41,149 bases of DNA from Gemmatimonadota bacterium (GTDB taxonomy: Bacteria > Gemmatimonadota > Gemmatimonadetes > Gemmatimonadales > GWC2-71-9): contig JACPAP010000024.1 in NCBI GenBank assembly GCA_016180765.1, positions 1-41,149 of the forward strand, in the 5' to 3' direction. Shown here in pieces: positions 6,203-34,963 of this stretch (within the stretch, counting starts at the first letter, position 1; each line of letters opens with the position of its first letter). Below the pieces are notes generated by a model. That model saw only the letters and a list, made by a program, of their open reading frames with translations, was not told the DNA's origin and did not search any database. The translations under genes were made by a program, and so were the position numbers.

Positions 6203-7042
6203 CTAGCGGCGCCAGGTCCAGGCGGGATCGGCGAAGACGGACAGAGGGATAGATGGACAGGCGGATGGTGCATGGTGTACCGCCTCACCGTGCTCGGCCC
6301 ACGTGTGCGCGATGGCCCGGGCCACCTCGTCGAACGACGCACGACGTCCCAGCGCCTCGGACATCGAGGTGGCGTTGGGTGGACGCGGGCGCTCCCGGCT
6401 CACCTGGGCGATGACCTCCTGCGATCCACCCAGGAGAATCGAGCCGTGCTGGAGGAAGGCACCGCCCTGACGCACCTGGGCCGAGCCAACCACTTTGCGG
6501 CCGTGGACCAGCACCTCTCCCCCGACCGGCTGGGCGAAACACGCCCCCGCGGACAGCGCGCCCGGGCGCGCCCCGGCAGGAGCCAGCGCGGCGTCCGCTC
6601 CCAGCGCTCGCAGCGCCCGAGCCAGACGCTCATGAATGACGCGGTAGCTGTCACGGAGGCAACCGAAGGCCGGGACCGGGGCCGCCACGGCGTATGTTAC
6701 TTCATCGTCGTGCCACACGGCGCGGCCGCCGGTGGGCCGGCGGACCACGCCCACGCCGAGGCGCTCGATCTCCGCTCGATCGTAGCGGGACAGGGCAGGC
6801 TCATTGCGCCCGAACGACAGGCAGGGCGGGTTCCAGCGATACAGACGGAGGTAGGCCAGGTCGCCGCGGCGATCCACGTCGTCCAGCAGCGCTTGATCGA
6901 TGGCCATGTTCTCCGCCCCGGGCCGGCCGTCGGGGTCCACCAGCAGCTGCCATGTCGGGGCGGCGGCTCGCGGCCGGGTGGGTCCCTCTGGGCGCTGTAG
7001 TGCTTGCACCCGCCCTTGCCCCTCGGGCAATGCCCGCCGCAC
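6203..7042 (-). CDS. Lipoate-protein ligase / octanoyltransferase family protein (BPL/LplA/LipB catalytic domain)
   Basis: TWQLLVDPDGRPGAENMAIDQALL...YLRLYRWNPPCLSFGRNE...VVRRPTGGRAVWHD matches the LplA/LipM N-terminal pattern. It sits next to gcvP/gcvH. The start is uncertain: ATG 7042, TTG 7030 and GTG 7009 all lie inside palindromic repeat copy A. GTG 6940 would remove the conserved first strand. Confidence 0.75.
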   Translation of the reverse strand: MRRALPEGQGRVQALQRPEGPTRPRAAAPTWQLLVDPDGRPGAENMAIDQALLDDVDRRGDLAYLRLYRWNPPCLSFGRNEPALSRYDRAEIERLGVGVVRRPTGGRAVWHDDEVTYAVAAPVPAFGCLRDSYRVIHERLARALRALGADAALAPAGARPGALSAGACFAQPVGGEVLVHGRKVVGSAQVRQGGAFLQHGSILLGGSQEVIAQVSRERPRPPNATSMSEALGRRASFDEVARAIAHTWAEHGEAVHHAPSACPSIPLSVFADPAWTWRR

Positions 7043-7068
7043 TAACGCGCCCCTCGGGACCCACCCGG
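6974..7068 (-). repeat. Palindromic intergenic element, copy A (inverted relative to copy B)
   Basis: Terminal inverted repeat ccgggtgggtccc (6974-6986) / gggacccacccgg (7056-7068). The reverse complement aligns with 17094-17185 at about 88 percent identity (hand alignment, about 10 mismatches in 86 nt). Confidence 0.75.
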
Positions 7069-7099
7069 TCGCTCGCGTAGCCCGTCCGCGTGTCCGTCC

Positions 7100-10006
7100 T
7101 CAGGCATATGCTTCGACCGGCGGACACACGCACACCAGGTTCCGGTCCCCGTAAGCCGCATCCACTCGTCCGACCGCCGGCCAGACCTTGTGCTCGCGAG
7201 TGGCACGGGTGGGGAGGCCGGCTCGCTCTCGCGAGTAGGGTCGGTTCCAGCCGTCGGCGAGCAACGCCTCCAGCGTGTGCGGCGCGTTGGTCAACAGGTT
7301 GTGCTCGCGGTCCATCTTGCCCTGCTCGATCTCGCGGATCTCCTCGCGAATCGCGATCATGGCCTCGCAGAAGCGATCCAGCTCGCCCCTGGGTTCGCTC
7401 TCGGTGGGCTCCACCATCAGCGTGCCCGGGACGGGGAACGAGACCGTGGGCGGGTGGAAGCCGTAGTCGATCAGGCGCTTCGCGATGTCTTCCACGTCGA
7501 TCCCCGACGGCTTGAACGGCCGGGTGTCGAGGATGCATTCGTGGCCGATGAGACCGTTCTTCCCGCTATAGACCAGCCCGTAGTGTCCTGCGAGTCGCCG
7601 CGCGATGTAGTTCGCGTTGAGGATGGCGAGCGTGGTCGCCTCGGTGAGCCCATCGGGGCCCATCATCGCAATGTAGGCCCAGGAGATCGGCAGGATGGAC
7701 GCGCTCCCCCACGGCGCGGCGGACACCGTGCCGCAGGACCGCTTGATGCCCAGGGGAATCACGGGATGGTCGGGCACGAACGGCGCCAGGTGCGCGGCTA
7801 CCCCGATCGGCCCCATGCCGGGGCCGCCGCCGCCGTGCGGGATGCAAAACGTCTTGTGCAGGTTGAGATGGCAAACGTCGGCCCCGATGTCCCCCGGGCG
7901 GCACAGGCCGACCTGCGCGTTCAGGTTGGCGCCGTCCATGTACACCTGGCCGCCGTGCTGGTGGACCACGTCGCAGATCTCTTTGATCCCCGCCTCGAAG
8001 ACGCCATGCGTAGAGGGATACGTGATCATCAGCGCGCCCAGCGTGTCGGCGTGCTCCTGGGCTTTGGCGCGAAGGTCGGATAGGTCCACGTCCCCCTGGG
8101 CGTTGGTCCTGACCACCACCACTTTCATGCCTGCCATGACGGCGCTGGCGGGATTGGTGCCGTGCGCGGATTGCGGGATGAGGCAGGTGGTGCGGTGCCC
8201 CTGGTTGCGGCTTCGGTGATACGCCCGGATGACCAGCAAGCCGGTAAACTCGCCCTGGGCGCCGGCGTTGGGTTGGAGCGACACCTGGGGGAAACCGGTG
8301 ATCTCGCCGAGCCAGGACTCCAGCTCGGCGAACAATTGCTGATAGCCTTGCGCCTGCTCCGGCGGCGCGAAGGGGTGGAGGCCGTTGAACTCGGGCCAGG
8401 TGATCGCCGCCATTTCCGCGGTCGCGTTGAGCTTGAGCGTGCAGGACCCCAGCGGGATCATGGCCGACGTGAGCGACAAGTCGCGGTCCTCGAGCTGCTT
8501 CAAGTACCGCAGCATCTCGGTCTCGGAGCGGTACCGGCGGAACACCGGGTGAGTGCAGAACGGGCTGGTGCGCGCGAGGCTCTGCGGAATGGCCGGCGCG
8601 ATCCTTCCGGCGAGGTCGTCCACCGAGAAGGGGAGACGCTTGCCCTGCGCGAAGATGGCCGCCAGCTCCTGGACGTCAGCAGCTGTCGTGGTCTCGTCCA
8701 GCGAGATGCCCAGCTGGGTCGGCGAGAGGACCCGCAGGTTAATGCGACGCGTGCGCGCCGCCTTGAGCAGCCGCTCCCGTTGCGCCTGCGTGACCTCGAT
8801 GCACAGGGTGTCAAAGAACTCGCCGTGCACCACGCGATACCGGAGTCGCCGCAGCGCCTCCGCCAGCAAGGCCGTGAGGCTGTGCACCCGGCGGCCAATC
8901 GCGGCGAGGCCGTCGGGTCCGTGATACACCGCGTAGGCGCCGGCCACCACGGCGAGCAGCACCTGGGCGGTACAGATGTTGCTGGTCGCCTTCTCGCGCC
9001 GGATGTGTTGCTCGCGCGTCTGCAACGCCATCCGCAGCGCGGGCCGGCCGGCACTGTCCTTGGAGACCCCGATGATCCGGCCGGGGACCAAGCGCTTGTA
9101 CGCTTCGCGCGTGGCGTAGAACGCGGCGTGCGGGCCGCCGTACCCCAGCGGGACGCCGAATCGCTGGGAATTGCCGACGGCCACGTCGGCACCCCACTCG
9201 CCCGGCGGCTGGAGCAGGGTGAGCGCCAGCAAGTCGGTGGCGGCGGTGACCAGCGCCCCCGCGGCGTGGGCCTTGTCACCAAGCGCGCGGTAGTCCCTTA
9301 TGGCCCCGTCCGTGGCTGGGTACTGGACCAGGGCCCCCACGATGCCCGGCGAGAAGGTGAACGTGGCAGGGTCTCCCACGCGAACCTCCACGCCGCGCGC
9401 CTCCGCACGGGTGCGGACCACCGCGATGGTTTGCGGGTGGCACCCTTCATCCACCAGATACACCGGGTGCTCGGGGTGATTGACGGCCAGGCTCATGGCC
9501 ATCGCCTCGGCGGCCGCCGTTCCCTCGTCCAGCAGGGACGCGTTCGCGATGGGCAGCGCCGTGAGATCGGCGACCATGGTCTGGAAGTTGAGCAACCCCT
9601 CCAGCCGGCCCTGCGCGATCTCCGCCTGGTAGGGCGTGTACGCGGTGTACCACCCCGGGTTCTCGAGGATATTCCGCTGGATCACGGGGGGCGTGATGCA
9701 ATCGTAGTAGCCCATGCCGAGGTAGGAGCGGAACACCTGGTTGTGGGACGCCATGGCGCGCAGCTCGGCCAACACCTCCCGTTCGGTTCGGGCGGCCGGC
9801 AGGTTGAGAGCGCGGTGCAGCCGGATGTTCTCGGGAACCAGGTCGTCAATCAGGGCATCGAGCGAGGGATACCCCAACACCCGCAGCATGTCCGGCACGT
9901 CGTCCGGCCGCGGCCCGACGTGACGGCGCACGAACCGGTCGGGGTGCTGGAGGGCGGACCGGGATGTGGTCTTGGGTGGGGCTTTGGCCTTCTTCGCGGT
10001 ACGCAT
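7100..10006 (-). CDS. gcvP: Glycine dehydrogenase (decarboxylating), single-chain P protein
   Basis: 968 aa, a full-length GcvP-type sequence. The PLP-lysine region reads [18 protein letters not shown]. Confidence 0.95.
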
Positions 10007-13721: not shown

Positions 13722-14894
13722 ATGGTGAGCCTTCCCCGCGCGGTTTCCGCCGTCACATCGCTGTCGCTCTGTGTCGCCGGCGCCCCGTCGGCGGCCCAGC
13801 AACGCCAGACCGCCCGGCAGCTCGGCGTGGTCGTGGGCGTGCTGCCCCCCGGCTCGCTCAACGCGATCACCGACGTGTCCGGCGTCCTGGTGGGCCAGGT
13901 GACCGTCCGCTCGGGCGACTCGATCAACACGGGCGTGACCGTGGTCCTGCCGCACGGTGGCAACCTGTTCCGCGACAAGGTGCCGGGCGCTGTGGTGGTG
14001 GGAAACGGGTTCGGCAAGTTGATGGGATTCACGCAGGTGCAGGAGCTGGGGGAGCTGGAGTCCCCCATCGTGCTGACCTGCACGTTATGCGTGCCGCGTG
14101 CGGCGGACGCCACGCTGACCTATCTCCTGTCGCTCCTCGGGAACGAGAGCGTCCGCTCCATCAACGTGGTGGTGGGCGAAACCAACGACGGGACGCTGAA
14201 CCACATCCGGGCTCGGCCCATCACCGAGCGGGACGTGTTACGGGCGATCGAAGAGGCCCGGCCCGGACCGGTGGAGCAGGGCAGCGTTGGGGCGGGGCGC
14301 GGCACCATAGCCTTCGGCTTCAAGGGCGGAATCGGGACCTCGAGCCGCCACCTCCCGGACCGCCTGGGGGGCTGGATCGTGGGTGTGCTGGTGCAGACCA
14401 ACTACGGCGGGATTCTCCAGATCGCCGGCGCTCCGGTCGGTATCGAGCTGGGCCGCTATTACCTCCGGGACGAGCTGGCGCCCGATGAACGCCGGGAAGG
14501 GGGAACGGGGAAAAGGGAAGGGTTGGACTCCCCGGACGGCTCCGTCATGATCGTGCTGGCGACCGACGCGCCGCTCGAGCACCGCAACCTGACGCGGTTG
14601 GCGCGGCGGGCACTCGCCGGGTTGGCGCGCACCGGCAGCTCCATGAGCAACGGCTCCGGCGATTACGTCATCGCGTTCAGTTCGGTGCCCGTCGCCCGGC
14701 TGGGTTCGATGCCCCGCATGCCCAACGACGCCATGAGTCCCCTGTTCCAGGCGGCGATCGAAGCCACGGAAGAAGCGATCTACAATTCCTTATTCATGGC
14801 CACCACCGTTGAGGGGTACCGCGGCACCGCGACGGCCCTGCCCCTGGATTCGACGCTGGCCATTCTCCAGCGCCACGGAGTGCTCCGCCAATGA
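13722..14894 (+). CDS. DmpA/P1-family aminopeptidase (peptidase S58), signal peptide
   Basis: Family-typical sequence: NAITDVSGVLVGQVT, GVTVVLPH, and the self-processing region ETNDG...GSVGAGRGT...VLATDAPL. The N-terminus is signal-like. Confidence 0.8.
   Translation: MVSLPRAVSAVTSLSLCVAGAPSAAQQRQTARQLGVVVGVLPPGSLNAITDVSGVLVGQVTVRSGDSINTGVTVVLPHGGNLFRDKVPGAVVVGNGFGKLMGFTQVQELGELESPIVLTCTLCVPRAADATLTYLLSLLGNESVRSINVVVGETNDGTLNHIRARPITERDVLRAIEEARPGPVEQGSVGAGRGTIAFGFKGGIGTSSRHLPDRLGGWIVGVLVQTNYGGILQIAGAPVGIELGRYYLRDELAPDERREGGTGKREGLDSPDGSVMIVLATDAPLEHRNLTRLARRALAGLARTGSSMSNGSGDYVIAFSSVPVARLGSMPRMPNDAMSPLFQAAIEATEEAIYNSLFMATTVEGYRGTATALPLDSTLAILQRHGVLRQ
14494..14521 (+). repeat. Heptamer block (4 x 7 bp: gggaagg gggaacg gggaaaa gggaagg) inside dmpA
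   Basis: Read directly from the sequence. It encodes REGGTGKREG in a surface-loop-like position just before DGSVMIVLATDAPL. Confidence 0.7.
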
Positions 14895-17800: not shown

Positions 17801-18439
17801 ATGACCGTCAACGAGCAGCTCCTCGCCTACGCCGAGCAGCTGTTCGCGCCGGAGGACGCCGCGCTCCACGAGATCCGCGCGCTGCCGGAGCGCGAAGGAC
17901 TGCCCGACATCGCCGTCTCGCCGGACGAGGGCAAGATCCTCGCGGTGCTGCTCACGGCCATCGGCGCCCGGCGCGTGCTGGAGATCGGCACGCTGGCGGG
18001 CTACAGCGGCGTGTGGATGGCTCGGGCGCTGTCCGCGGGAGGCATGCTCACGACGATCGAGGCGGACCCGAAGCACGCGGCGGCGGCACGGCGGGCGTTC
18101 GAACGAGCGGGCGTGGCGCACCGGGTTCAGCTCATCGAGGGCCGCGCGCTCGAGGTGCTGCCCACGCTCCGGCCGGGGTACGACGCGGTCTTCGTGGACG
18201 CGGACAAGGAGCCGCTGGAACAGTACTACCGGCAGGCGATGCGGCTGCTCCGGCGGGGCGGCCTGCTCTTGTGCGACAATGCCTTCTTCAACGGACGGGT
18301 GACGGACCCGCGCGACACCGCGGCCGACGTCGAGGGGGTGCGGGCGTTCAACCGGCTCGCGGCGAGCGACGCCCGGCTCGCGGCTGCCGTCATTCCGGTG
18401 CGGGACGGCCTGGTGGTCGGCGTGAAGGTGGCGGAATGA
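17801..18439 (+). CDS. Class I SAM-dependent O-methyltransferase (caffeoyl-CoA OMT-like, Methyltransf_3)
   Basis: VLEIGTLAGYSGVWMA (motif I) and VFVDADKE. The start is trimmed to the ATG at 17801. Confidence 0.85.
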   Translation: MTVNEQLLAYAEQLFAPEDAALHEIRALPEREGLPDIAVSPDEGKILAVLLTAIGARRVLEIGTLAGYSGVWMARALSAGGMLTTIEADPKHAAAARRAFERAGVAHRVQLIEGRALEVLPTLRPGYDAVFVDADKEPLEQYYRQAMRLLRRGGLLLCDNAFFNGRVTDPRDTAADVEGVRAFNRLAASDARLAAAVIPVRDGLVVGVKVAE

Positions 18440-20316
18440 AGCGGGGCGCCGGCATCGGGCGCGTGGTGGCGACGGAGGCCACGCCGGCCACGCCACACGA
18501 GTTCCGGTTTCGTGCGGCGGCCGATGAGGACGCGGTCGGCATTGGCGCGCTGGTGCGGGTAAGCGGCGACGGCGGACGGCGGGTGTATGCGGTCGTGACT
18601 GACGGACGAGCGTACGAAGCGGACGGGGAAACGGGAAACGGGAAACGGGAAACCATCCTGTGGACCGCCTCCGTGCTCCGGCAAGTCCCCCCTGAGCCGC
18701 TCCGGCCGGTGCCGATCGCGGACGTGTATCTGGCCGCGCCGGAGGACGTCGCGGTGGCGCTCCGGATGGACGCGTACTCGGCGGGGTTGCCGGTGGGGTT
18801 GTATGGGAGCGAGGCATCGCGGGCGCCGGTGCAGCTGGATCCGGATTTCCTGGTGGGGCCCGAAGCGGCGCACCTCAATGTGGGAGGGGTCTCGGGGCTG
18901 GCCACCAAGACCAGCGCTATGGTGTTCCTGCTGGCCGGCGCCTTCCAGTGCTTTCCCCGTTCGAAGGGCACCATCGCCGCGGTCTGCTTCAACGTCAAGG
19001 GCGGCGATCTGTGCTTTCTGGACCAGGCGGCGTCGCTGAGCGAGCCGGATGGGGCGATGTACCGGGCCCTGGGACTCGAACCCCGGCCGTTCGCCCGAAC
19101 GCGCTACTTCGCGCCGTTCAAGCCGGACGGCGTGAACCTCAACACCCTGCGCTCCCACGAGGAGCTCCGATCCTCGGTCCAGCCGCTGGTGTGGGGCTTG
19201 CCGGAGGTCCTGGAGTACGCCGAAGTCCTGCTCAACCGGGAGGACATCGACGCCAAGGCGGACGCCTTCATCGATTTCCTGGGAGACCGGGTGATTGGGA
19301 GGGAATTCGCCGACGACTGGGGCGGGGTGCACCGGGTGACGAGCTTCGCGGATCTGGACCGCCTGTTCCGCGCCATCTTCGACGGGCTGGAGCAGAAGGG
19401 CGGTCGGAGCGACATGTGGAGGACGCACCACGTCGCCACGATGCGCAAGGTGCGGAACCGGCTGCTCAACATCTCGGTGAGGTGCCGTGGGCTGGTGGCG
19501 GACGACGGCTCGTCCAACGATCTGCCGTTCGGCGCATTCGAGGATCGCGCGGTGTACGTGCTGGACCTTGCGGGCACCGATCAGCTGGCCCAGGATCTGG
19601 TGTTCACGCGAGTGGTCTCCAAGCTGCGGGAGCATCTGGAGCGCCGCGACCTGGGCGTGGAGCACGTCATCGTGCTGGTGGACGAGCTGAACAAGTACGC
19701 GCCGGCGGATGGCCCCGAGAGCTACGTCCGGGAGATGTTGCTGGACATCGCCGAGCGCGGGCGCTATTTGGGCCTGGTGCTGTTCGGCGCCCAGCAGTTC
19801 CGCTCCCAGGTGCACCGTCGCGTGGTCGGCAACGCCGCGACGGCGATCTTCGGCCGCAGCGACCTGGACGAGCTGGGGACGGCGGGGTATCAGGGCTTGT
19901 CGCCCGCGACCAAGATCAAGCTGGCGACGCTCCCCAAGGGGGAGTTGATGGTGCGCCACCCGCACTTCACGCAGCCCGTGTTCGTCCGGTTTCCCCGCCC
20001 GCCTGTGCTGCTGGGCGGCGAGGGGCTGGACCGGTTCCCGCCGGCCGCCGACGCGGCGTTTGACGAGGCGGTGACGCGACAGCTGGCGGCGTTGGACCGC
20101 CGGGTGGCCGCCGCCACGGTGCGCGATCTGATCGCGGACCGAGACCAGGACGATGTGCGGCGGGCTCTGCTGGCCACCCGCCGCGCCCAGCCCGACGATC
20201 CGGTGAGCTTCTTCCGGGCACGCCTGGGCCCGCGGGTGGCCCGCGAAGGGCGGGACCAAGTGGCGCCAGGCGTCCGACCTCTTTCCTCGCTGGAGGATCC
20301 GTATGCGAGCCAGTAG
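18436..20316 (+). CDS. HerA-like (HAS-barrel + FtsK/HerA-fold) ATPase with non-canonical P-loop
   Basis: 626 aa from the ATG at 18436 (ATGA overlap with the OMT gene). N-terminal HAS-barrel-like GRVVATEATPATPHEFRFRA...GALVRV...RVYAVVTD. Walker B HVIVLVDELNKYAP. HerA-like GLVLFGAQQFRSQV...NAATAIFGR. Confidence 0.75.
   Translation: MKRGAGIGRVVATEATPATPHEFRFRAAADEDAVGIGALVRVSGDGGRRVYAVVTDGRAYEADGETGNGKRETILWTASVLRQVPPEPLRPVPIADVYLAAPEDVAVALRMDAYSAGLPVGLYGSEASRAPVQLDPDFLVGPEAAHLNVGGVSGLATKTSAMVFLLAGAFQCFPRSKGTIAAVCFNVKGGDLCFLDQAASLSEPDGAMYRALGLEPRPFARTRYFAPFKPDGVNLNTLRSHEELRSSVQPLVWGLPEVLEYAEVLLNREDIDAKADAFIDFLGDRVIGREFADDWGGVHRVTSFADLDRLFRAIFDGLEQKGGRSDMWRTHHVATMRKVRNRLLNISVRCRGLVADDGSSNDLPFGAFEDRAVYVLDLAGTDQLAQDLVFTRVVSKLREHLERRDLGVEHVIVLVDELNKYAPADGPESYVREMLLDIAERGRYLGLVLFGAQQFRSQVHRRVVGNAATAIFGRSDLDELGTAGYQGLSPATKIKLATLPKGELMVRHPHFTQPVFVRFPRPPVLLGGEGLDRFPPAADAAFDEAVTRQLAALDRRVAAATVRDLIADRDQDDVRRALLATRRAQPDDPVSFFRARLGPRVAREGRDQVAPGVRPLSSLEDPYASQ
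18626..18653 (+). repeat. Heptamer block (4 perfect copies of GGGAAAC) inside the herA-like gene
   Basis: Read directly from the sequence. It encodes GETGNGKRET between HAS-barrel strands. Confidence 0.85.
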
Positions 20317-24791: not shown

Positions 24792-25743
24792 CCGCGTAGT
24801 CCAGGGCCCCAGGCAACTGGTTGAGTCGGAGATCGGACCGCTCAACCGGCTGTTTGCGGACGCGTTCACGGACCGGTATCGCAAGGACGGGCTGGTGGGC
24901 GTGCGGGTCCCGCAGCTGAACCCGGACGTCTGGCGCTACGCGCTGCGTGATGCGGGCGACGGGGCCATGGCCTGGACCGACGAGCGCGGCGACCTGGTGG
25001 CGTTCAACGTGGCCCACCACAGCGGGGTGGAAGGCTGGATGGGGCCACTGGCGGTGCGTCCGGACCGGCAGGGGCTGGGCCTGGGCAAGGCGATCATCCG
25101 CTCGGCGGTGGAGTGGCTGGTGGAGCAGCGGGTGAGGGTCATCGGGCTCGAGACCATGCCGCGGACCGTCGAGAACATCGGGTTCTACAGCAAGCTGGGG
25201 TTCGTCCCCGGCCATCTCACCATCACGCTCACCGGGGACGTGCAGCGGAGCGTGCGGGGGCGGTTCACCCGGCTGAGCGAGCTGTCCCAGCGCGAGCGGA
25301 CGACGTGGTTGCCCCGGCTGCGGGAGGCGTTGGAGGGCGGGTTGCCCGGATACGATTTCCTGCGCGAGCTGGAGCTTACCTCTCAGCTGAGCCTGGGCGA
25401 CACCGTGGTGATCGGCTCCGGCAGCGAGGTGACGGCGTTCGCGCTGTACCACTCGGTGCCGCTGGCCGAGGCACGGCCCGGCGACGAGCTGCGGGTGCTC
25501 AAGCTGTACGCGGACTCGCTCGAGACGTTCGACAAACTGATCGTGGCGCTGGAGTCCTGCGCGGCCAAGCACAAGCTCCGTCGCGTGGCGGTGCGGTGCC
25601 AGACGGGATACCACCGGGCGTACCGCTATTTGATCGAGCGAGGCTACCGGGCTCGGTGGACGGACCTGAGGATGTGGTTGGACGGGTACGGGGAGACGGT
25701 GCTGGGTGGTGGCGGCGTGCTGTTTTCGAACTGGGAAATCTGA
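24778..25743 (+). CDS. GNAT-family N-acetyltransferase (two-lobed)
   Basis: MGPLAVRPDRQGLGLGKAIIRSAVEWL is the acetyl-CoA binding motif A. The ATG at 24778 overlaps the rad50 3' end by 14 nt. Confidence 0.8.
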   Translation: MWQPDRVVQGPRQLVESEIGPLNRLFADAFTDRYRKDGLVGVRVPQLNPDVWRYALRDAGDGAMAWTDERGDLVAFNVAHHSGVEGWMGPLAVRPDRQGLGLGKAIIRSAVEWLVEQRVRVIGLETMPRTVENIGFYSKLGFVPGHLTITLTGDVQRSVRGRFTRLSELSQRERTTWLPRLREALEGGLPGYDFLRELELTSQLSLGDTVVIGSGSEVTAFALYHSVPLAEARPGDELRVLKLYADSLETFDKLIVALESCAAKHKLRRVAVRCQTGYHRAYRYLIERGYRARWTDLRMWLDGYGETVLGGGGVLFSNWEI

Positions 25744-25750
25744 GAAAGCC

Positions 25751-25806
25751 GTTTTCCGTTACCCGTTATCCGTAACTGCCTTTACGGACAACGGAAAGCG
25801 GACAAC
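25751..25806. terminator. Inverted pair of heptamer blocks forming a hairpin between convergent genes
   Basis: 25751-25778 is gttttcc gttaccc gttatcc gtaactg (reverse-orientation units). 25779-25806 is cctttac ggacaac ggaaagc ggacaac (forward units). tccgtaa/ttacgga and ccgtt/aacgg pair around a 6-nt loop. It lies between the GNAT stop (25743) and the small ORF stop (25809). Confidence 0.6.
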
Positions 25807-25808
25807 GC

Positions 25809-25973
25809 TCACCGGGGGCGCGCCTTCTCGTCAGCCCTCACAATGCCCACCGCGATCAAGACCACGCCAAGGGCCAAGGGACCGTGCACCCATCCCGACG
25901 GGATCGCCAGGGCGAAGGCCAGCACCGCCCAGAGGGCCAGGGACACCAGTGCGAGCAGGAAGTAGCGGTTCAC
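25809..25973 (-). CDS. Small (54 aa) two-TM membrane protein, not in the ORF track
   Basis: GTG at 25973, 4 nt after the M29-like stop. Translation: VNRYFLLALVSLALWAVLAFALAIPSGWVHGPLALGVVLIAVGIVRADEKARPR. Strong GC3 bias. Confidence 0.45.
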   Translation of the reverse strand: MNRYFLLALVSLALWAVLAFALAIPSGWVHGPLALGVVLIAVGIVRADEKARPR

Positions 25974-30531: not shown

Positions 30532-31173
30532 TTGTTCATCGAGCTCTCCGAATTCCTGCGTTGCCCGGAACCGCACGAGGAGAGTTTCTGCGTCGTGGCG
30601 CCCGACGAGATGGCGGGACGGATGATCGTGCGCGGCATCGTCGGCTGTCCCGTCTGCCGGCGGGAGTACCCGATCACGCAGGGGGTAGTGCACTTTGGAA
30701 AGACGGCAGCGACGGCAGAGACGGCAGCGACGGCAGGGGCCGGCGCCGGCGCCGGGGGCGCCGCAGACGCCGATCCGGATGTCATCTGGTCACTCCTCGG
30801 TCTGGCCAGCCCAGGCGGGATTGTCGTGCTCGGCGGCTCTGCCGCGCGACTGGCGGGCGCGCTCGCCGAGCGAATGGGCGGCGTGCACTTGGTGGGCGTG
30901 AACGCCACTGCGGGCGTCGAGATGTCGCCCGTGCTCACGCTTCTCCGCCACCCCAGCCGCATTCCGCTGCGTCAGAACATGGCGCGGGGTGTGGTGCTCG
31001 GCGGCGAGGCCGCCAGGGAACCGTGGATCAGCGAGGGCGCGCGGGTCCTGCTCCCCGGCCTCCGTTTGGTCGCGGCCGCGGAAACGGTATCAGCGCCGGG
31101 TCTCGATCAGCTCGCGGTGGGGCGCGGAATGTGGGTGGGCCAGAAGACGGGGAACGTGAAACGGGAAACGTGA
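30532..31173 (+). CDS. Trm112-like zinc-ribbon protein fused to a Rossmann-like domain through a low-complexity linker
   Basis: TTG start immediately after the folE stop. LRCPEPHE...CPVCRREYPITQGVVHF resembles Trm112/UPF0434. The C-terminal part GGIVVLGGSAARLAGAL is methyltransferase-like. Confidence 0.55.
   Translation: MFIELSEFLRCPEPHEESFCVVAPDEMAGRMIVRGIVGCPVCRREYPITQGVVHFGKTAATAETAATAGAGAGAGGAADADPDVIWSLLGLASPGGIVVLGGSAARLAGALAERMGGVHLVGVNATAGVEMSPVLTLLRHPSRIPLRQNMARGVVLGGEAAREPWISEGARVLLPGLRLVAAAETVSAPGLDQLAVGRGMWVGQKTGNVKRET
30702..30737 (+). repeat. In-frame 9-bp tandem repeat (4 copies of gacggcagn) followed by gccggc hexamer repeats
   Basis: gacggcagc gacggcaga gacggcagc gacggcagg, then gccggcgccggcgccggg. 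Together they encode the TAATAETAATAGAGAGAGG linker. Confidence 0.8.
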
Positions 31174-31176
31174 AGC
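31149..31176 (+). repeat. Heptamer block (ggggaac gtgaaac gggaaac gtgaagc) forming the last codons and stop of the Trm112-like gene
   Basis: Read directly from the sequence. It encodes TGNVKRET followed by TGA (31171-31173). Confidence 0.8.
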
Positions 31177-31209
31177 GTCCTAGGGGCTTAATGACAACGT
31201 TGCTCCGCG

Positions 31210-33003
31210 TTACTCCGCGTAGGCGGCGTCGATCAGGGCTTGGTACTTCTTCTCCACCACCGCGCGTTTGACTTTCAACGTCGGGGTCAGCTCGCCGCGC
31301 TCGATGGTGAAATCGTCCTTGATGACCACGATCTTCTTCGGCATCTCGAAGCTTGCCAGGTCGCGGAGATTGATCATCGCCTCGCGTTCGATCTTGGCCG
31401 TCACGTCGGGCTGCTCCAGGAACCGGTCCAGGTCGTCGGTGGGAAGCCCGCGCTGAGCCGCCCAGGCAACCAGCGCCTCGACGGCGGGGACCACCAGCAG
31501 CACCGGGAACTTCCGCTGGTCGCCGATCAGCACCGCGTTCTTGAGGAACGGGGTGTTGCGCACCAGGTTCTCGATCGGCTGGGGCGCGATCTTCTTGCCC
31601 CCCGCCGTGACGATGATGTCCTTCTTCCGGTCGGTGATTCTGAGGAAACCGTCGGCGTCCAGGTCGCCGATGTCGCCGGTGTGGAACCAGCCCTGGGCGT
31701 CGATCGCCTCGGCCGTGGCCTGCGGCTTGTGGTAGTACCCCTGCATGACGTTGGGGCCCCGCACCAGGATCTCTCCGTCTTCCGCGATCCGCACCTCGAC
31801 GTTCGGCACCGGACGGCCCACGGTGCCAATCTTGAGGGCCTTGAGGGCGTTGACCGACACCAGCGGTGACGTTTCGGTGAGTCCGTAGCCTTCGAGGACG
31901 GGCAGGCCGGCGGCATAGAAGAACTTGGCGATCTCGGGCGCCAGCGGCGCGGCCCCCGACACGAAGAAGCGGATCCGCCCCCCGGTCCGCGCCCGCAGCT
32001 TCCGGAACACCAGCCGGTCCACCATCCTCCGCCGTACCCGAAGGCCGAGCGGGACGGCGTGGCCAGCGAGCTTGAGGTCGGCATACCCGGCGCCGATCCG
32101 CCGGGCCCAGAAGAAGACCCGCCGCGACACCGCGCCGCCCGCCATCGCCACCTCGGTGACCCGGGCGTAGATCTTCTCGTACACCCGGGGTACCAGCAGC
32201 ACGACGGTGGGCCGCACCTCGAGCAGGTCCTGGGCGATGGTGTTGAGACTCTCGGCGTAGTTGATCGTGGCGCCGCCGTGGAGCATCGTGTAGTGGCCCG
32301 CCATGCGCTCGAAGCTGTGCGCCAGCGGTAGGGCAGAAAGGCACGAGTCGGTGGGCCCGATGCGTACCACCTGCAGCGCCGCGACCACGTTGGCGCAGAA
32401 ATTGGCGTGCGTGAGCATGACGCCCTTGGGCTCGCCCGTGGTGCCGGAGGTGTAGATCAACGTGGCCAGGTCGTCCGGGGCGGTGGCCAGCGCATCCTGC
32501 CGGTACCTGGGGTACTTGGCTTCGGCCGCGGCTCCGTGGCGCAGGAGCTGCTGGAAGGGAATGACGTCGTCGCCCTGGCGCGGCGGCCCGAACATGAATA
32601 CGGTCTTGAGCTGGGGCAGGGAGCCGCGCACGCTTTGCACCTGCTCGTATTGCTCGCGATCACCCACGAAGATCGCGGTGGCCCCGGAGTCCCGGATGAG
32701 GTATGCGATCTGTGGGCCCGGCAGGGCGGGGTAGATGGCCACGTCGGCGCACCGCGCGGTCAAACAGGCGTAATCGGCGATCGCCCACTCCGGGCGGTTG
32801 TGCGAGTAGATCGCGACGCGATCGCCGGGCCGGATACCGAACTCGTGGAGCCCCAGCGCCGCATGGTACACTCGGCGGGCCAGCTCCTGGTGCGAGATGT
32901 CCCGCCACCCGCCATCCACCTTGTACCGCAACGCCGCCCGTTTGGTGCTGAACCGCTCGACGGCGTCGAAGAACAGGTGGTTGAGGGTGGGGGGAGCAGT
33001 CAC
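31210..33003 (-). CDS. fadD: Long-chain fatty-acid--CoA ligase (AMP-dependent synthetase)
   Basis: AMP-binding motif IYTSGTTGEPKGV, plus TGDIG and ITDRKKD. 597 aa, GTG start. Confidence 0.9.
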   Translation of the reverse strand: MTAPPTLNHLFFDAVERFSTKRAALRYKVDGGWRDISHQELARRVYHAALGLHEFGIRPGDRVAIYSHNRPEWAIADYACLTARCADVAIYPALPGPQIAYLIRDSGATAIFVGDREQYEQVQSVRGSLPQLKTVFMFGPPRQGDDVIPFQQLLRHGAAAEAKYPRYRQDALATAPDDLATLIYTSGTTGEPKGVMLTHANFCANVVAALQVVRIGPTDSCLSALPLAHSFERMAGHYTMLHGGATINYAESLNTIAQDLLEVRPTVVLLVPRVYEKIYARVTEVAMAGGAVSRRVFFWARRIGAGYADLKLAGHAVPLGLRVRRRMVDRLVFRKLRARTGGRIRFFVSGAAPLAPEIAKFFYAAGLPVLEGYGLTETSPLVSVNALKALKIGTVGRPVPNVEVRIAEDGEILVRGPNVMQGYYHKPQATAEAIDAQGWFHTGDIGDLDADGFLRITDRKKDIIVTAGGKKIAPQPIENLVRNTPFLKNAVLIGDQRKFPVLLVVPAVEALVAWAAQRGLPTDDLDRFLEQPDVTAKIEREAMINLRDLASFEMPKKIVVIKDDFTIERGELTPTLKVKRAVVEKKYQALIDAAYAE

Positions 33004-33867: not shown

Positions 33868-34326
33868 ATGCGTCCCAAAGCCCCTCCACCACCCGCCCGC
33901 GACCCGGAGATCGTGCTGGGGATCGCCAAGGCCGGCGTGATCCCGGGAGCCGTGGTCGCCTCTATCCTCCAGCGTGACTTCGCGTCCATGGCGGTCACCC
34001 GCTTCGGCGAAAGTTCTCGCCCCACGCTGGTGACCGCGCCACCGCCACTCATCCGGGGCCGCCGGGTGCTGGTGGTAGACGAAACCTGTGATTCCGGCGA
34101 GACGCTGAAGCTGGCGCTCTCCGCGGTGCGCAAGGTCGGACCGGCGGACGTCCGCACCGCGGTCTCCTTCAAGACCGGCCCGTACGAGCCGGACTTCTAC
34201 GCCCTGGCGAGCGAGAGCTTCATCATCCTCCCGTGGGATCGGGAGATCATCGTGGACGGGGAATTCGTGATGCGGCCGGAGTACGCGGTCCGGCTCGGGG
34301 AGCTCGCGCCGCGGCAGATGGACTGA
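33868..34326 (+). CDS. Phosphoribosyltransferase (purine PRT-like)
   Basis: PRPP-binding motif VLVVDETCDSGETL. An in-frame TAG 15 nt upstream fixes the start. Confidence 0.8.
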   Translation: MRPKAPPPPARDPEIVLGIAKAGVIPGAVVASILQRDFASMAVTRFGESSRPTLVTAPPPLIRGRRVLVVDETCDSGETLKLALSAVRKVGPADVRTAVSFKTGPYEPDFYALASESFIILPWDREIIVDGEFVMRPEYAVRLGELAPRQMD

Positions 34327-34332
34327 AAGGCC

Positions 34333-34410
34333 GTGAGACGTGAGACGTAAGATGTGAGACGTCAGCAGAGGTCGCCGCAACCGTGTCACTTCTCACCTCT
34401 GACGTCTCAC
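34333..34410. terminator. Inverted pair of heptamer blocks (GTGAGAC units) forming a strong hairpin between convergent genes
   Basis: 34333-34360 is gtgagac gtgagac gtaagat gtgagac. 34383-34410 is gtgtcac ttctcac ctctgac gtctcac (reverse units). gtgagacgtcag (34354-34365) is the perfect reverse complement of 34399-34410. Confidence 0.65.
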
Positions 34411-34414
34411 AGTT

Positions 34415-34963
34415 CTAAAGCACCGAGCTGTAGTCCCGCCCCTCACTCATCGCCTGATACACCGCTTCCAAGGCTTCCGGCTTGCCCAGCAGAAACCGGC
34501 AGCGCGCCTGATCGGCGCTGCGGCATTCGACTTCCATCACCGAAACGGGCTGCTGGGAGAGGGCGCCCATGAACCCGGCGAGCAGCCCCGCCGAGAGATG
34601 GCAGGAGGGGTACGGAGCATGGGCCGCCGGATCCGCCTCGGCCCACTCGGCGGTGTCCATCGCGATGCCCGTGGAGCCGACGCGGTTCATCGAGATCGGG
34701 CCCCAGCCCAGCGCCTGGAAGAAATCAGACAGGACGCCGCCCAGCGCACTGGCCGCGATCGCGCCGGGGTCGTCCAGTCCGGTGGTGGTCTTGAGCCAGC
34801 GGCGAAAACAGTGGTAGACGTCGCGGCCCGCGGCGTGGCCCGCTTCCTGCAGCCGCTCGGCCGCCTGGTCCCCGAGGGAAGCCTGCAACGCCTGCCGCAG
34901 CGCCTGGAACCCGCTCCGCCCGAGGCCGACCGTATCGCCGTTCAGCTCGACTACGCCCGCCAT
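34415..34963 (-). CDS. V4R (4-vinyl reductase) domain protein
   Basis: C-terminal SCHLSAGLLAGFMGALSQQPVSVMEVECRSADQARCRFLLG matches the V4R pattern. Confidence 0.7.
   Translation of the reverse strand: MAGVVELNGDTVGLGRSGFQALRQALQASLGDQAAERLQEAGHAAGRDVYHCFRRWLKTTTGLDDPGAIAASALGGVLSDFFQALGWGPISMNRVGSTGIAMDTAEWAEADPAAHAPYPSCHLSAGLLAGFMGALSQQPVSVMEVECRSADQARCRFLLGKPEALEAVYQAMSEGRDYSSVL

Follow-up and report, generated by a model that had tools for sequence, protein, structure and literature searches.

The herA gene of a Gemmatimonadota bacterium (Gemmatimonadales, GWC2-71-9) contains four identical tandem copies of the heptamer GGGAAAC, and the question is what such a block does in a gene for a DNA-repair ATPase and where it came from. 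The gene lies on contig JACPAP010000024.1 of assembly GCA_016180765.1, a metagenome-assembled genome; the whole contig, 41,149 bp with a G+C content of 69.8%, is referred to here as the window. The original prediction, made from the letters of the window, described a dispersed family of 28-bp blocks of exactly four heptamers of the type GKGARAC at five loci, among them a perfect (GGGAAAC)x4 inside herA, and considered a common origin as a mini-insertion or as a module of slippage or recombination as well as a contingency-locus-like role. The perfect herA block was confirmed at 18626–18653 and all five loci were found where they had been placed. With a probability of roughly 60%, the herA block is one copy of a Gemmatimonadales-wide family of heptanucleotide tandem arrays with a modal size of 4–4.5 units, and, with the same probability, the repeats known from Xanthomonas (GGGAATC) and from Nostoc (GGGGAYT) are elements of the same kind as this family.

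The arrays in the window exceed what is expected from its composition. A lag-autocorrelation scan for four-copy arrays of period 7 with at least 80% self-match detected three arrays, against 0.07 expected from dinucleotide shuffles. No excess was seen for the periods 4, 5, 8, 10 and 11, and among the tested periods that are not multiples of 3 only 7 was enriched. The pattern (GKGARAC)x4 was matched with at most three mismatches at 18626, 31142/31149 and 34333, while 0.00 matches were expected from 100 dinucleotide-preserving shuffles; the other two loci fall outside this pattern, which had been proposed for all five. The array at 14494–14521 is degenerate, and only 2.7 copies are assigned to it by Tandem Repeats Finder (TRF). 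The array at 31149 forms the last 8 codons and the stop codon of the Trm112-like open reading frame (ORF), with the TGA (31171–31173) lying within the fourth unit. The peptides had been read correctly as TGNGKRET in HerA, TGNVKRET followed by the stop codon in the Trm112-like protein and GTGKREG in DmpA, and direct reading of the sequence also gives the 21 of 24 identical nucleotides between the herA and Trm112-like blocks. The shared reading phase, which had been taken as a sign of common origin, is correct as a reading but is weak evidence: any in-frame reading of at least three GGGAAAC units yields a cyclic permutation of G-K-R-E-T-G-N, and the registers match by chance in about one of three comparisons.

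The size of the blocks was studied in 87 Gemmatimonadales loci with a total of 1.49 Mb. The sample consists of close relatives, obtained in a separate search, and 80 added herA loci, which were among the matches listed and are all at most 69% identical. The syntenic loci of the close relatives, designated L001–L008, encode HerA proteins that are 74–90% identical to that of the window. At a threshold of four copies and at least 75% self-match, the 87 loci contain 8.8–13 arrays of period 7 per 100 kb, compared with 0.7–4.0 of period 8, 0.6–1.3 of period 10 and none of period 11. Copy numbers were counted with TRF, which reported 174 period-7 arrays, and with a stricter detector of our own. According to TRF, the classes of 2, 3, 4 and at least 5 copies hold 44, 53, 70 and 7 arrays of period 7. 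The corresponding numbers are 44, 34, 11 and 2 for period 6, 79, 35, 7 and 9 for period 8, and 257, 38, 3 and 0 for period 9. The periods 6, 8, 9 and 10 decay monotonically, whereas period 7 peaks at 4–4.5 copies (28–32 nt) and collapses at five or more. The stricter detector placed 128, 44, 42 and 2 period-7 arrays in the four classes. Array lengths gather at 27–33 nt and then stop, and the four-unit mode is alike inside and outside coding sequence. This copy-number distribution shows that the blocks of four are a real property of the family.

A size of four units is also what a G-quadruplex (G4) would require. The herA motif fits the form G3N4 x4, with four G3 tracts and four-nucleotide loops, and a quadruplex in the DNA or mRNA might modulate the replication, transcription or translation of herA. 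For GGGAATC-type repeats, G4 formation in vitro was reported by Rehm et al. 2015 (PMC4692102) and tied to their preference for four units. When folded in isolation with ViennaRNA and its G4 energies, the herA tract is predicted to adopt a three-tetrad RNA G4 (−13.2 versus −8.0 kcal/mol), and the dmpA tract keeps a predicted G4 in its minimum-energy fold even in a 120-nt context. The herA G4, however, leaves the predicted minimum-energy fold as soon as the tract is folded together with 25 nt of flanking sequence in both directions, and relatives have GGACAAC, GGACATC or GGACCTC at the herA site in place of GGGAAAC. Three of the five window loci (31149, 34333 and 25751) are unable to form a three-tetrad G4. 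A G3 tract in each unit, typical of the repeats of Rehm et al., is found in the herA and dmpA arrays, but 100 of the 174 period-7 arrays have no G-run of three or more, and in these the four-unit mode is the same as in the 74 with such runs, or stronger. Thus, G4 formation is not the general cause of the four-unit size, and we consider a G4 element improbable as the explanation of the herA block.

The placement of the arrays points to the 3′ ends of genes. Of 88 arrays, 38 lie wholly within the approximately 9.5% of the sequence that is intergenic and a further 10 lie at a gene end or extend across one; since herA is part of every locus, the intragenic share is overestimated. Most of the arrays are found 0–40 nt from a facing stop codon. 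A reverse-complementary partner is present within 110 nt for 36 of 51 non-coding arrays (71%); among intergenic controls chosen at random, the number is 1 of 37. The 24 clearest pairs have arms of mostly 31–32 nt, spacers of 3–74 nt and folding energies of −35 to −124 kcal/mol. Two such pairs are present in the window. The GNAT gene, with its stop codon at 25743, and a convergent small ORF on the minus strand (25809–25973) are separated by a 65-nt gap that is occupied by the imperfect inverted pair at 25751–25806; the RNA fold of this pair has z scores of −6.2 (plus strand) and −5.4 (minus strand) against shuffles. At 34333–34410, four GTGAGAC-type units and four complementary ones (z scores of −3.3 on the plus and −5.7 on the minus strand) fill the 88-nt gap between the stop codon of the phosphoribosyltransferase gene at 34326 and the convergent V4R-domain gene on the minus strand (34415–34963). 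The array at 31149 has no inverted partner. At the GNAT site, hairpins are also present in L001, with GGGGTAA/GGGGTGA units and their complement, and in L003, with GTGAGCG and its complement; in both relatives the two arms have changed together.

The coding copies allow the history of the arrays to be followed. The product of herA, with its true start at 18436, matches the HerA structure 7f6d_B of the Protein Data Bank (PDB) with an E value of 2.7e-55, and the best PDB match of its model in Foldseek is Deinococcus radiodurans HerA (7wrw, TM score 0.67–0.71). Pfam and NCBIfam returned no family for this HerA, and the protein is identified solely through its matches in the PDB to Deinococcus HerA, in sequence and in fold. 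In the AlphaFold2 model, which has a mean predicted local distance difference test (pLDDT) score of 71, residues 63–70 fall below 50 and are located between the strands 49–60 and 73–84. On this model, the array encodes the low-confidence tip of a beta-hairpin, probably a disordered and tolerated surface loop in the N-terminal barrel. Between the conserved peptides VVTDGRAY and LWTASVLRQ, nearly all close relatives carry a heptamer array, and the length of the loop, 24–87 nt, is a multiple of 3 in every one of them while the units differ (Table 1). A relative 86% identical to the window has GGGAAAC CGGGAAG GGGAAAC GGGAAAC. The corresponding segment of 19 more distant Gemmatimonadales loci is conserved, lacks periodicity and consists of 96 nt (32 amino acids) encoding YSDLATPLHDVVAAEGDP..PTRRTEVR. 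The loop is thus not an ancestral peptide that distant taxa encode with unrelated codons; the herA array is derived and replaces a conserved, non-repetitive loop of 32 amino acids. Another, more distant subclade keeps the ancestral loop and carries arrays in the preceding hairpin turn instead (IGIGAIVRVE[...]GRVVYGVV). Among them are (GGGAAAC)3 of L054 and an array of about ten units in L056, which encode the same GNGKRETG peptides. The L056 array (6218–6287), in a HerA loop other than that of the window, is the only one of the 174 with ten or more copies, and the DmpA gene of the L056 genome also bears (GGGAAAC)x4.4. The longest heptamer-coded loop is that of P0015, known as a protein. In the window, the loop with this second position contains the weak tract at 18564..18582.

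The other intragenic sites behave in the same way. In the DmpA loop, arrays are present in the window, L001, L006 and L008, a single GGGGAAC unit in L005 and none in L007. The Trm112-like site was compared through protein tails and one short DNA locus, L089, the sole DNA orthologue sampled, which has a different heptamer array at the same spot; orthologous DNA of the 31149 and 34333 sites is mostly missing from the sample. Distant relatives of the Trm112-like protein end in ...GLWVGQK(x)*, and the tails of many closer ones are variable (TGNVKRET, HGKRET, TGKGEKGKEKGR, ..TTDNG). In about ten distant relatives (L031 9898–9929, L032 6880–6907, L038 5503–5530 and others), the O-methyltransferase encoded just before herA has a C-terminal tail made up of C-rich arrays, of the CCTCCCG and CATCCCG types; the arrays can hence be read in frame in either orientation. 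In L006 (3718–3993), the O-methyltransferase was called with 91 amino acids instead of 212 and herA starts 70 nt later, which may reflect a truncation or a frameshift. Within genes, no arrays were seen outside variable loops and C-terminal tails, and the comparison of herA, dmpA and Trm112-like orthologues with and without an array shows that copy number and unit vary while the reading frame is always maintained.

The preserved frame bears on the proposal that herA is turned off and on as a single unit is gained or lost. The argument is formally true, as a 7-nt unit is not a multiple of 3, and the perfect identity of the four units favours slippage. Such heptanucleotide tracts in open reading frames are known from Haemophilus influenzae (PMC2651432), where they differ between strains, have broken frames in some of them and, in the tracts considered phase-variable, comprise 6–38 units in surface and uptake genes. 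The herA array has only four units, no variation was seen in it among near-identical assemblies, and the genes hit in the window are housekeeping ones for DNA repair, a peptidase and a Trm112-like protein. None of 89 herA genes is frameshifted; all align in a single frame. The four units of the window are also present in two independent assemblies, L091, which aligns without gaps over 8318 nt at 99.5% identity, and L092, at 99.9% identity, a comparison of three assemblies only. The identical type of array also occurs after stop codons, where the frame is irrelevant. In one distant orthologue, L032 (approximately 7040–7100), the 5′ edge of the HerA array is directly adjoined by an in-frame TAA (VKVE*GTAGKGEGGRVVYGVV). 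This would suit a switch; the gene may be split or a pseudogene, or the assembly may be in error. Phase variation of herA is therefore very improbable; for herA itself the finding is benign, and nothing points to an on/off switch.

A second kind of frameshifting was rejected. The heptamer G_GGA_AAC is a canonical X_XXY_YYZ slippery sequence for −1 ribosomal frameshifting, and direct reading places it in the correct register at 18633–18639. The −1 frame, however, terminates after 18 codons, the downstream structure is not significant (z = −1.1) and the heptamer is not conserved among the relatives, which leaves a programmed −1 site with hardly any probability.

For the copies at orthologous sites, turnover by replication slippage or recombination, which was among the origins first suggested, fits the observed changes of copy number and unit. 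We propose that slipped-strand mispairing of 7-nt units would seed the arrays and remodel them in place. The herA array appears to have been homogenised recently, since its four units are perfectly identical while the flanks differ by 14% from the nearest relative. The likeness of the arrays within a genome might be maintained by short-patch exchange between loci, or it might reflect a constraint common to them. The paired arrays could serve as 3′-end RNA hairpins, that is, as terminators or mRNA stabilisers, and selection would favour hairpins after genes. The intragenic copies, on the other hand, would be passengers that persist only if the unit is free of stop codons in every frame and encodes hydrophilic residues, and only in tolerant loops. 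GGGAAAC satisfies both demands (G-K-R-E-T-G-N), whereas the GTGA-containing units of the window genome could not persist in frame. The array would let the length of the HerA loop evolve fast without regulating the gene. In combination with selection, slipped-strand turnover explains the herA copy.

Several observations weigh against this explanation of the whole family. From slippage alone, neither the peak at four units and the cliff beyond it nor the sharing of genome-specific units by unlinked loci would be expected. At the junction of the thymidine kinase and CoaE genes, the unit is GCGATTA, GCGAAAT, GCGGATT, GGTGTCA, GGATAGC or GCTGTCA depending on the genome, and different sites of one genome often use a common unit. 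The mean distance between units of different sites is 2.11 within a genome and 2.75 between genomes, and 31% of the units are within one mismatch of each other in the same genome compared with 8% in different genomes (permutation p = 0.0005). The genes for the O-methyltransferase and HerA overlap by 4–10 nt in 42 of 61 genomes, while in L029, L066 and L077 this junction is a gap of approximately 100–170 nt with heptamer arrays, which form hairpins in L029 and L066 and a single array past the stop codon in L077; this resembles the gain of a whole module. An irregular unit, ACTTCCG, is kept in orthologous right arms in which the other units change together, as seen by inspection. The hairpins have strong stems but no U-tract, and none of them was flagged by a terminator scan that requires a T-run. 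Finally, every sampled locus surrounds herA, so that any statement on whole genomes is an extrapolation from 1.49 Mb of syntenic sequence, and the gene calls come from a home-made codon-bias caller.

Three side results belong to these observations. Intrinsic (Rho-independent) terminators were rejected as the class of the hairpins, as the stem is present and the U-tract is not. The hairpin of L029 (3349–3464), approximately 115 nt with heptamer arms and −82 kcal/mol, is located between the O-methyltransferase stop codon and the HerA start. ACTTCCG is the third unit in L038 (3133–3164), L043 (7040–7067), L035 (8280–8311) and L039 (7723–7754), the others being CGTTCCG versus CATTTCG, and L035 bears this arm at a genomic site other than that of L038 and L043.

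An alternative that would explain the size directly is a calibrated, dispersed module of about 31 nt per arm that is copied whole by a mobile or templated mechanism, similar to that of repetitive extragenic palindromic (REP) sequences with their associated transposases (RAYT), to that of miniature inverted-repeat transposable elements, or to synthesis during break repair; the herA, dmpA and Trm112-like copies would then be insertions. The climb of the histogram to 4–4.5 units, the uniform arms, the genome-specific units and the hairpins in junctions that are translationally coupled in most relatives all agree with it. So does the arm at the GNAT site of L035, which by inspection is identical over 28 nt, irregular unit included, to the L043 arm at a different site; the sharing of this irregular unit is not readily explained by simple slippage. 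On the other hand, no transposase domain or RAYT-type gene was found among the ORFs of the window, the coding copies are single-armed, and orthologous sites hold graded numbers from 0 to about 7 units of differing sequence, one of them a single-unit seed. The flanks of short arrays lack residual periodicity, so that no decayed full-size modules were seen, although this test is weak as TRF already extends arrays over all similarity. Target-site duplications were sought at the L029 hairpin, but the nearest insertion-free relative, 77% identical at the nucleotide level, is too distant for such a comparison. We regard copying of whole modules as an unlikely origin of the arrays. Of the common origin that had been suggested, the existence of a real family and the likeness of its units within a genome were borne out, whereas the fixed 28-bp mobile mini-insertion was not. 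Still, simple in-situ slippage falls short of the mode at four units, of units specific to each genome and of the hairpins gained in tight junctions, for which module copying or homogenisation between loci is a candidate process. A tentative synthesis, which we hold to be doubtful though somewhat less so, is a heptamer module of about 31 nt (4–4.5 units), usually paired as a hairpin, that would be actively copied or homogenised within a genome and would arise de novo after stop codons, even between coupled genes, and in surface loops, its G4-independent size being set by a recombination-length threshold or by an unknown templated or protein-measured process.

The preferred reading, local turnover of a family of heptamer arrays, can be compared with known repeats. 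Rehm et al. 2015 (PMC4692102) described dispersed heptamer repeats, GGGAATC in Xanthomonas and GGGGA(C/T)T in Nostoc, that prefer four units, are frequently arranged as convergent pairs, lie at a mean of 28 nt from the upstream ORF and are intragenic in 7–11% of cases in Xanthomonas. These repeats have no known function and no tie to particular gene functions, and at conserved sites of Xcc and Xac they differ in length and sequence (PMC4692102). The Gemmatimonadales arrays resemble them in being over-represented, in preferring four units, in forming inverted pairs near upstream stop codons and in having an intragenic minority. They differ in coming from another phylum and in lacking a single dominant unit, the unit varying by genome and locus. 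In-frame colonisation is also prominent here: two loops of HerA and one of DmpA are affected, as are the tails of both the O-methyltransferase and the Trm112-like protein. According to the accounts of Mrazek et al. 2007 given in PMC4679880 and PMC4692102, heptanucleotides are the most abundant class among simple sequence repeats with units of 5–11 nt, and polymerase slippage was proposed for the 7-nt units (PMC4679880); as far as these accounts go, the window family is similar, being a period-7 excess in a large, high-G+C genome of a non-pathogen. The TAACTGA repeats of marine Beggiatoaceae and cyanobacteria (MacGregor 2015, PMC4679880) are also genome-specific heptamers at many loci, with 2–6 copies, some of which extend over stop codons or lie at protein termini. 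They are, however, mostly placed just upstream of starts, contain stop codons in all forward frames and include one inverted repeat in 170 sets, whereas the Gemmatimonadales arrays are mostly downstream of genes and paired. In the library searched, nothing relevant was found on heptamer or simple sequence repeats in Gemmatimonadota.

Genome-specific short repeats that form inverted pairs between genes and hairpins at gene 3′ ends are also known as REP sequences and bacterial interspersed mosaic elements (BIME). The intergenic pairs described here are likewise genome-specific, hairpin-forming and located at gene 3′ ends. A REP element, though, is a single imperfect palindrome, while the arms here are tandem heptamers, single arms are also intragenic and no RAYT-type gene was seen in the window.

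Table 1. Heptamer arrays of the window, their host gene, and the herA loop in the window and its close relatives
Feature	Position	Strand	Context or length
Degenerate array GGGAAGG GGGAACG GGGAAAA GGGAAGG	14494..14521	+	Variable loop of S58 (DmpA-type) peptidase gene 13722–14894
herA, 626 amino acids	18436..20316	+	ATG overlaps stop of upstream O-methyltransferase gene (ATGA)
Weak period-7 tract CGGCGGA x2.9	18564..18582	+	Preceding HerA loop (SGDGGRR); may be chance
Perfect (GGGAAAC)x4 in herA	18626..18653	+	Residues ~64–73 (G-ETGNGKRET); G3N4 x4 form required for G4
Hairpin left arm CCGTTTT CCGTTAC CCGTTAT CCGTAAC	25749..25776	+	Begins 5 nt past TGA of GNAT gene (ends 25743)
Hairpin right arm TAC GGACAAC GGAAAGC GGACAAC G	25783..25807	+	Ends 1 nt before 3′ end of convergent ORF
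Single array GGGGAAC GTGAAAC GGGAAAC GTGAAGC	31149..31176	+	3′ end of Trm112-like gene 30532–31173
Hairpin left arm GTGAGAC GTGAGAC GTAAGAT GTGAGAC	34333..34360	+	Begins 6 nt past phosphoribosyltransferase stop (gene ends 34326)
Hairpin right arm GTGTCAC TTCTCAC CTCTGAC GTCTCAC	34383..34410	+	Ends 4 nt before 3′ end of V4R-domain gene
herA loop, window: (GGGAAAC)4			48 nt
herA loop, L001: GGGGAAG GAGCAAC CGGGAAG GGGGAAC GGGAAAC			51 nt
herA loop, L003: ~seven GGACAAC-type units			87 nt
herA loop, L005: (GGGGAAG GCGGAAC)2 then (GGACATC)4			72 nt
herA loop, L006: GGGGAAA GGGGAAC GGGGAAG GGGGAAG then non-repetitive sequence			72 nt
herA loop, L007: GGACCTC-type array			72 nt
herA loop, L008: array absent			24 nt

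The genes around the arrays are an ordinary housekeeping set. They encode an oligopeptide ABC transporter, the P and H proteins of glycine cleavage, CoaE, thymidine kinase, S58 and M55 peptidases, an aminotransferase, an O-methyltransferase, a GNAT acetyltransferase, GTP cyclohydrolase I, the Trm112-like protein, an acyl-CoA synthetase, an NAD-dependent DNA ligase and others. The herA gene is the first of a cluster with a 295-amino-acid ORF, mre11 (sbcD) and rad50 (sbcC), its neighbours encoding Mre11/SbcD and SMC/Rad50-type proteins. The segment 17801–25743, from the O-methyltransferase over HerA, the 295-amino-acid ORF, Mre11/SbcD and Rad50/SbcC to GNAT, is syntenic in all close relatives sampled. 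Pfam and NCBIfam gave no family for the 295-amino-acid ORF; it occupies the place where NurA would be expected. Two other tandem repeats are found near the 31149 array. At 30697–30742, within the Trm112-like gene, a 9/18-nt repeat, (GACGGCAGC)x3.9, encodes the low-complexity linker TAATAETAATAGAGAGAG that connects the zinc-ribbon N-terminus with the C-terminal domain of the protein. At 31198–31220, approximately 25 nt from the heptamer array, the 10-nt repeat CGTTACTCCG x2.3 spans the end of the intergenic gap and the 3′ end of the convergent gene for an AMP-binding enzyme (ends 31210).

The herA block is a member, in a new lineage, of a known and still unexplained class of repeats. The range of the four-unit heptamer repeats, analysed until now in Nostoc and Xanthomonas, is thereby extended to a distant and mostly uncultured phylum. 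The Gemmatimonadales arrays also provide a natural test of the G4 idea: the preference for four units persists where the capacity to form a G4 is lacking, and another size-setting mechanism is required. The arrays have practical consequences for annotation, such as spurious C-terminal extensions and odd low-complexity loops, and also for aligning proteins from metagenome-assembled genomes. Such repeats can repeatedly colonise and remodel protein loops and termini in frame, and are a source of rapid evolution of loop length in HerA, DmpA and the Trm112-like protein.

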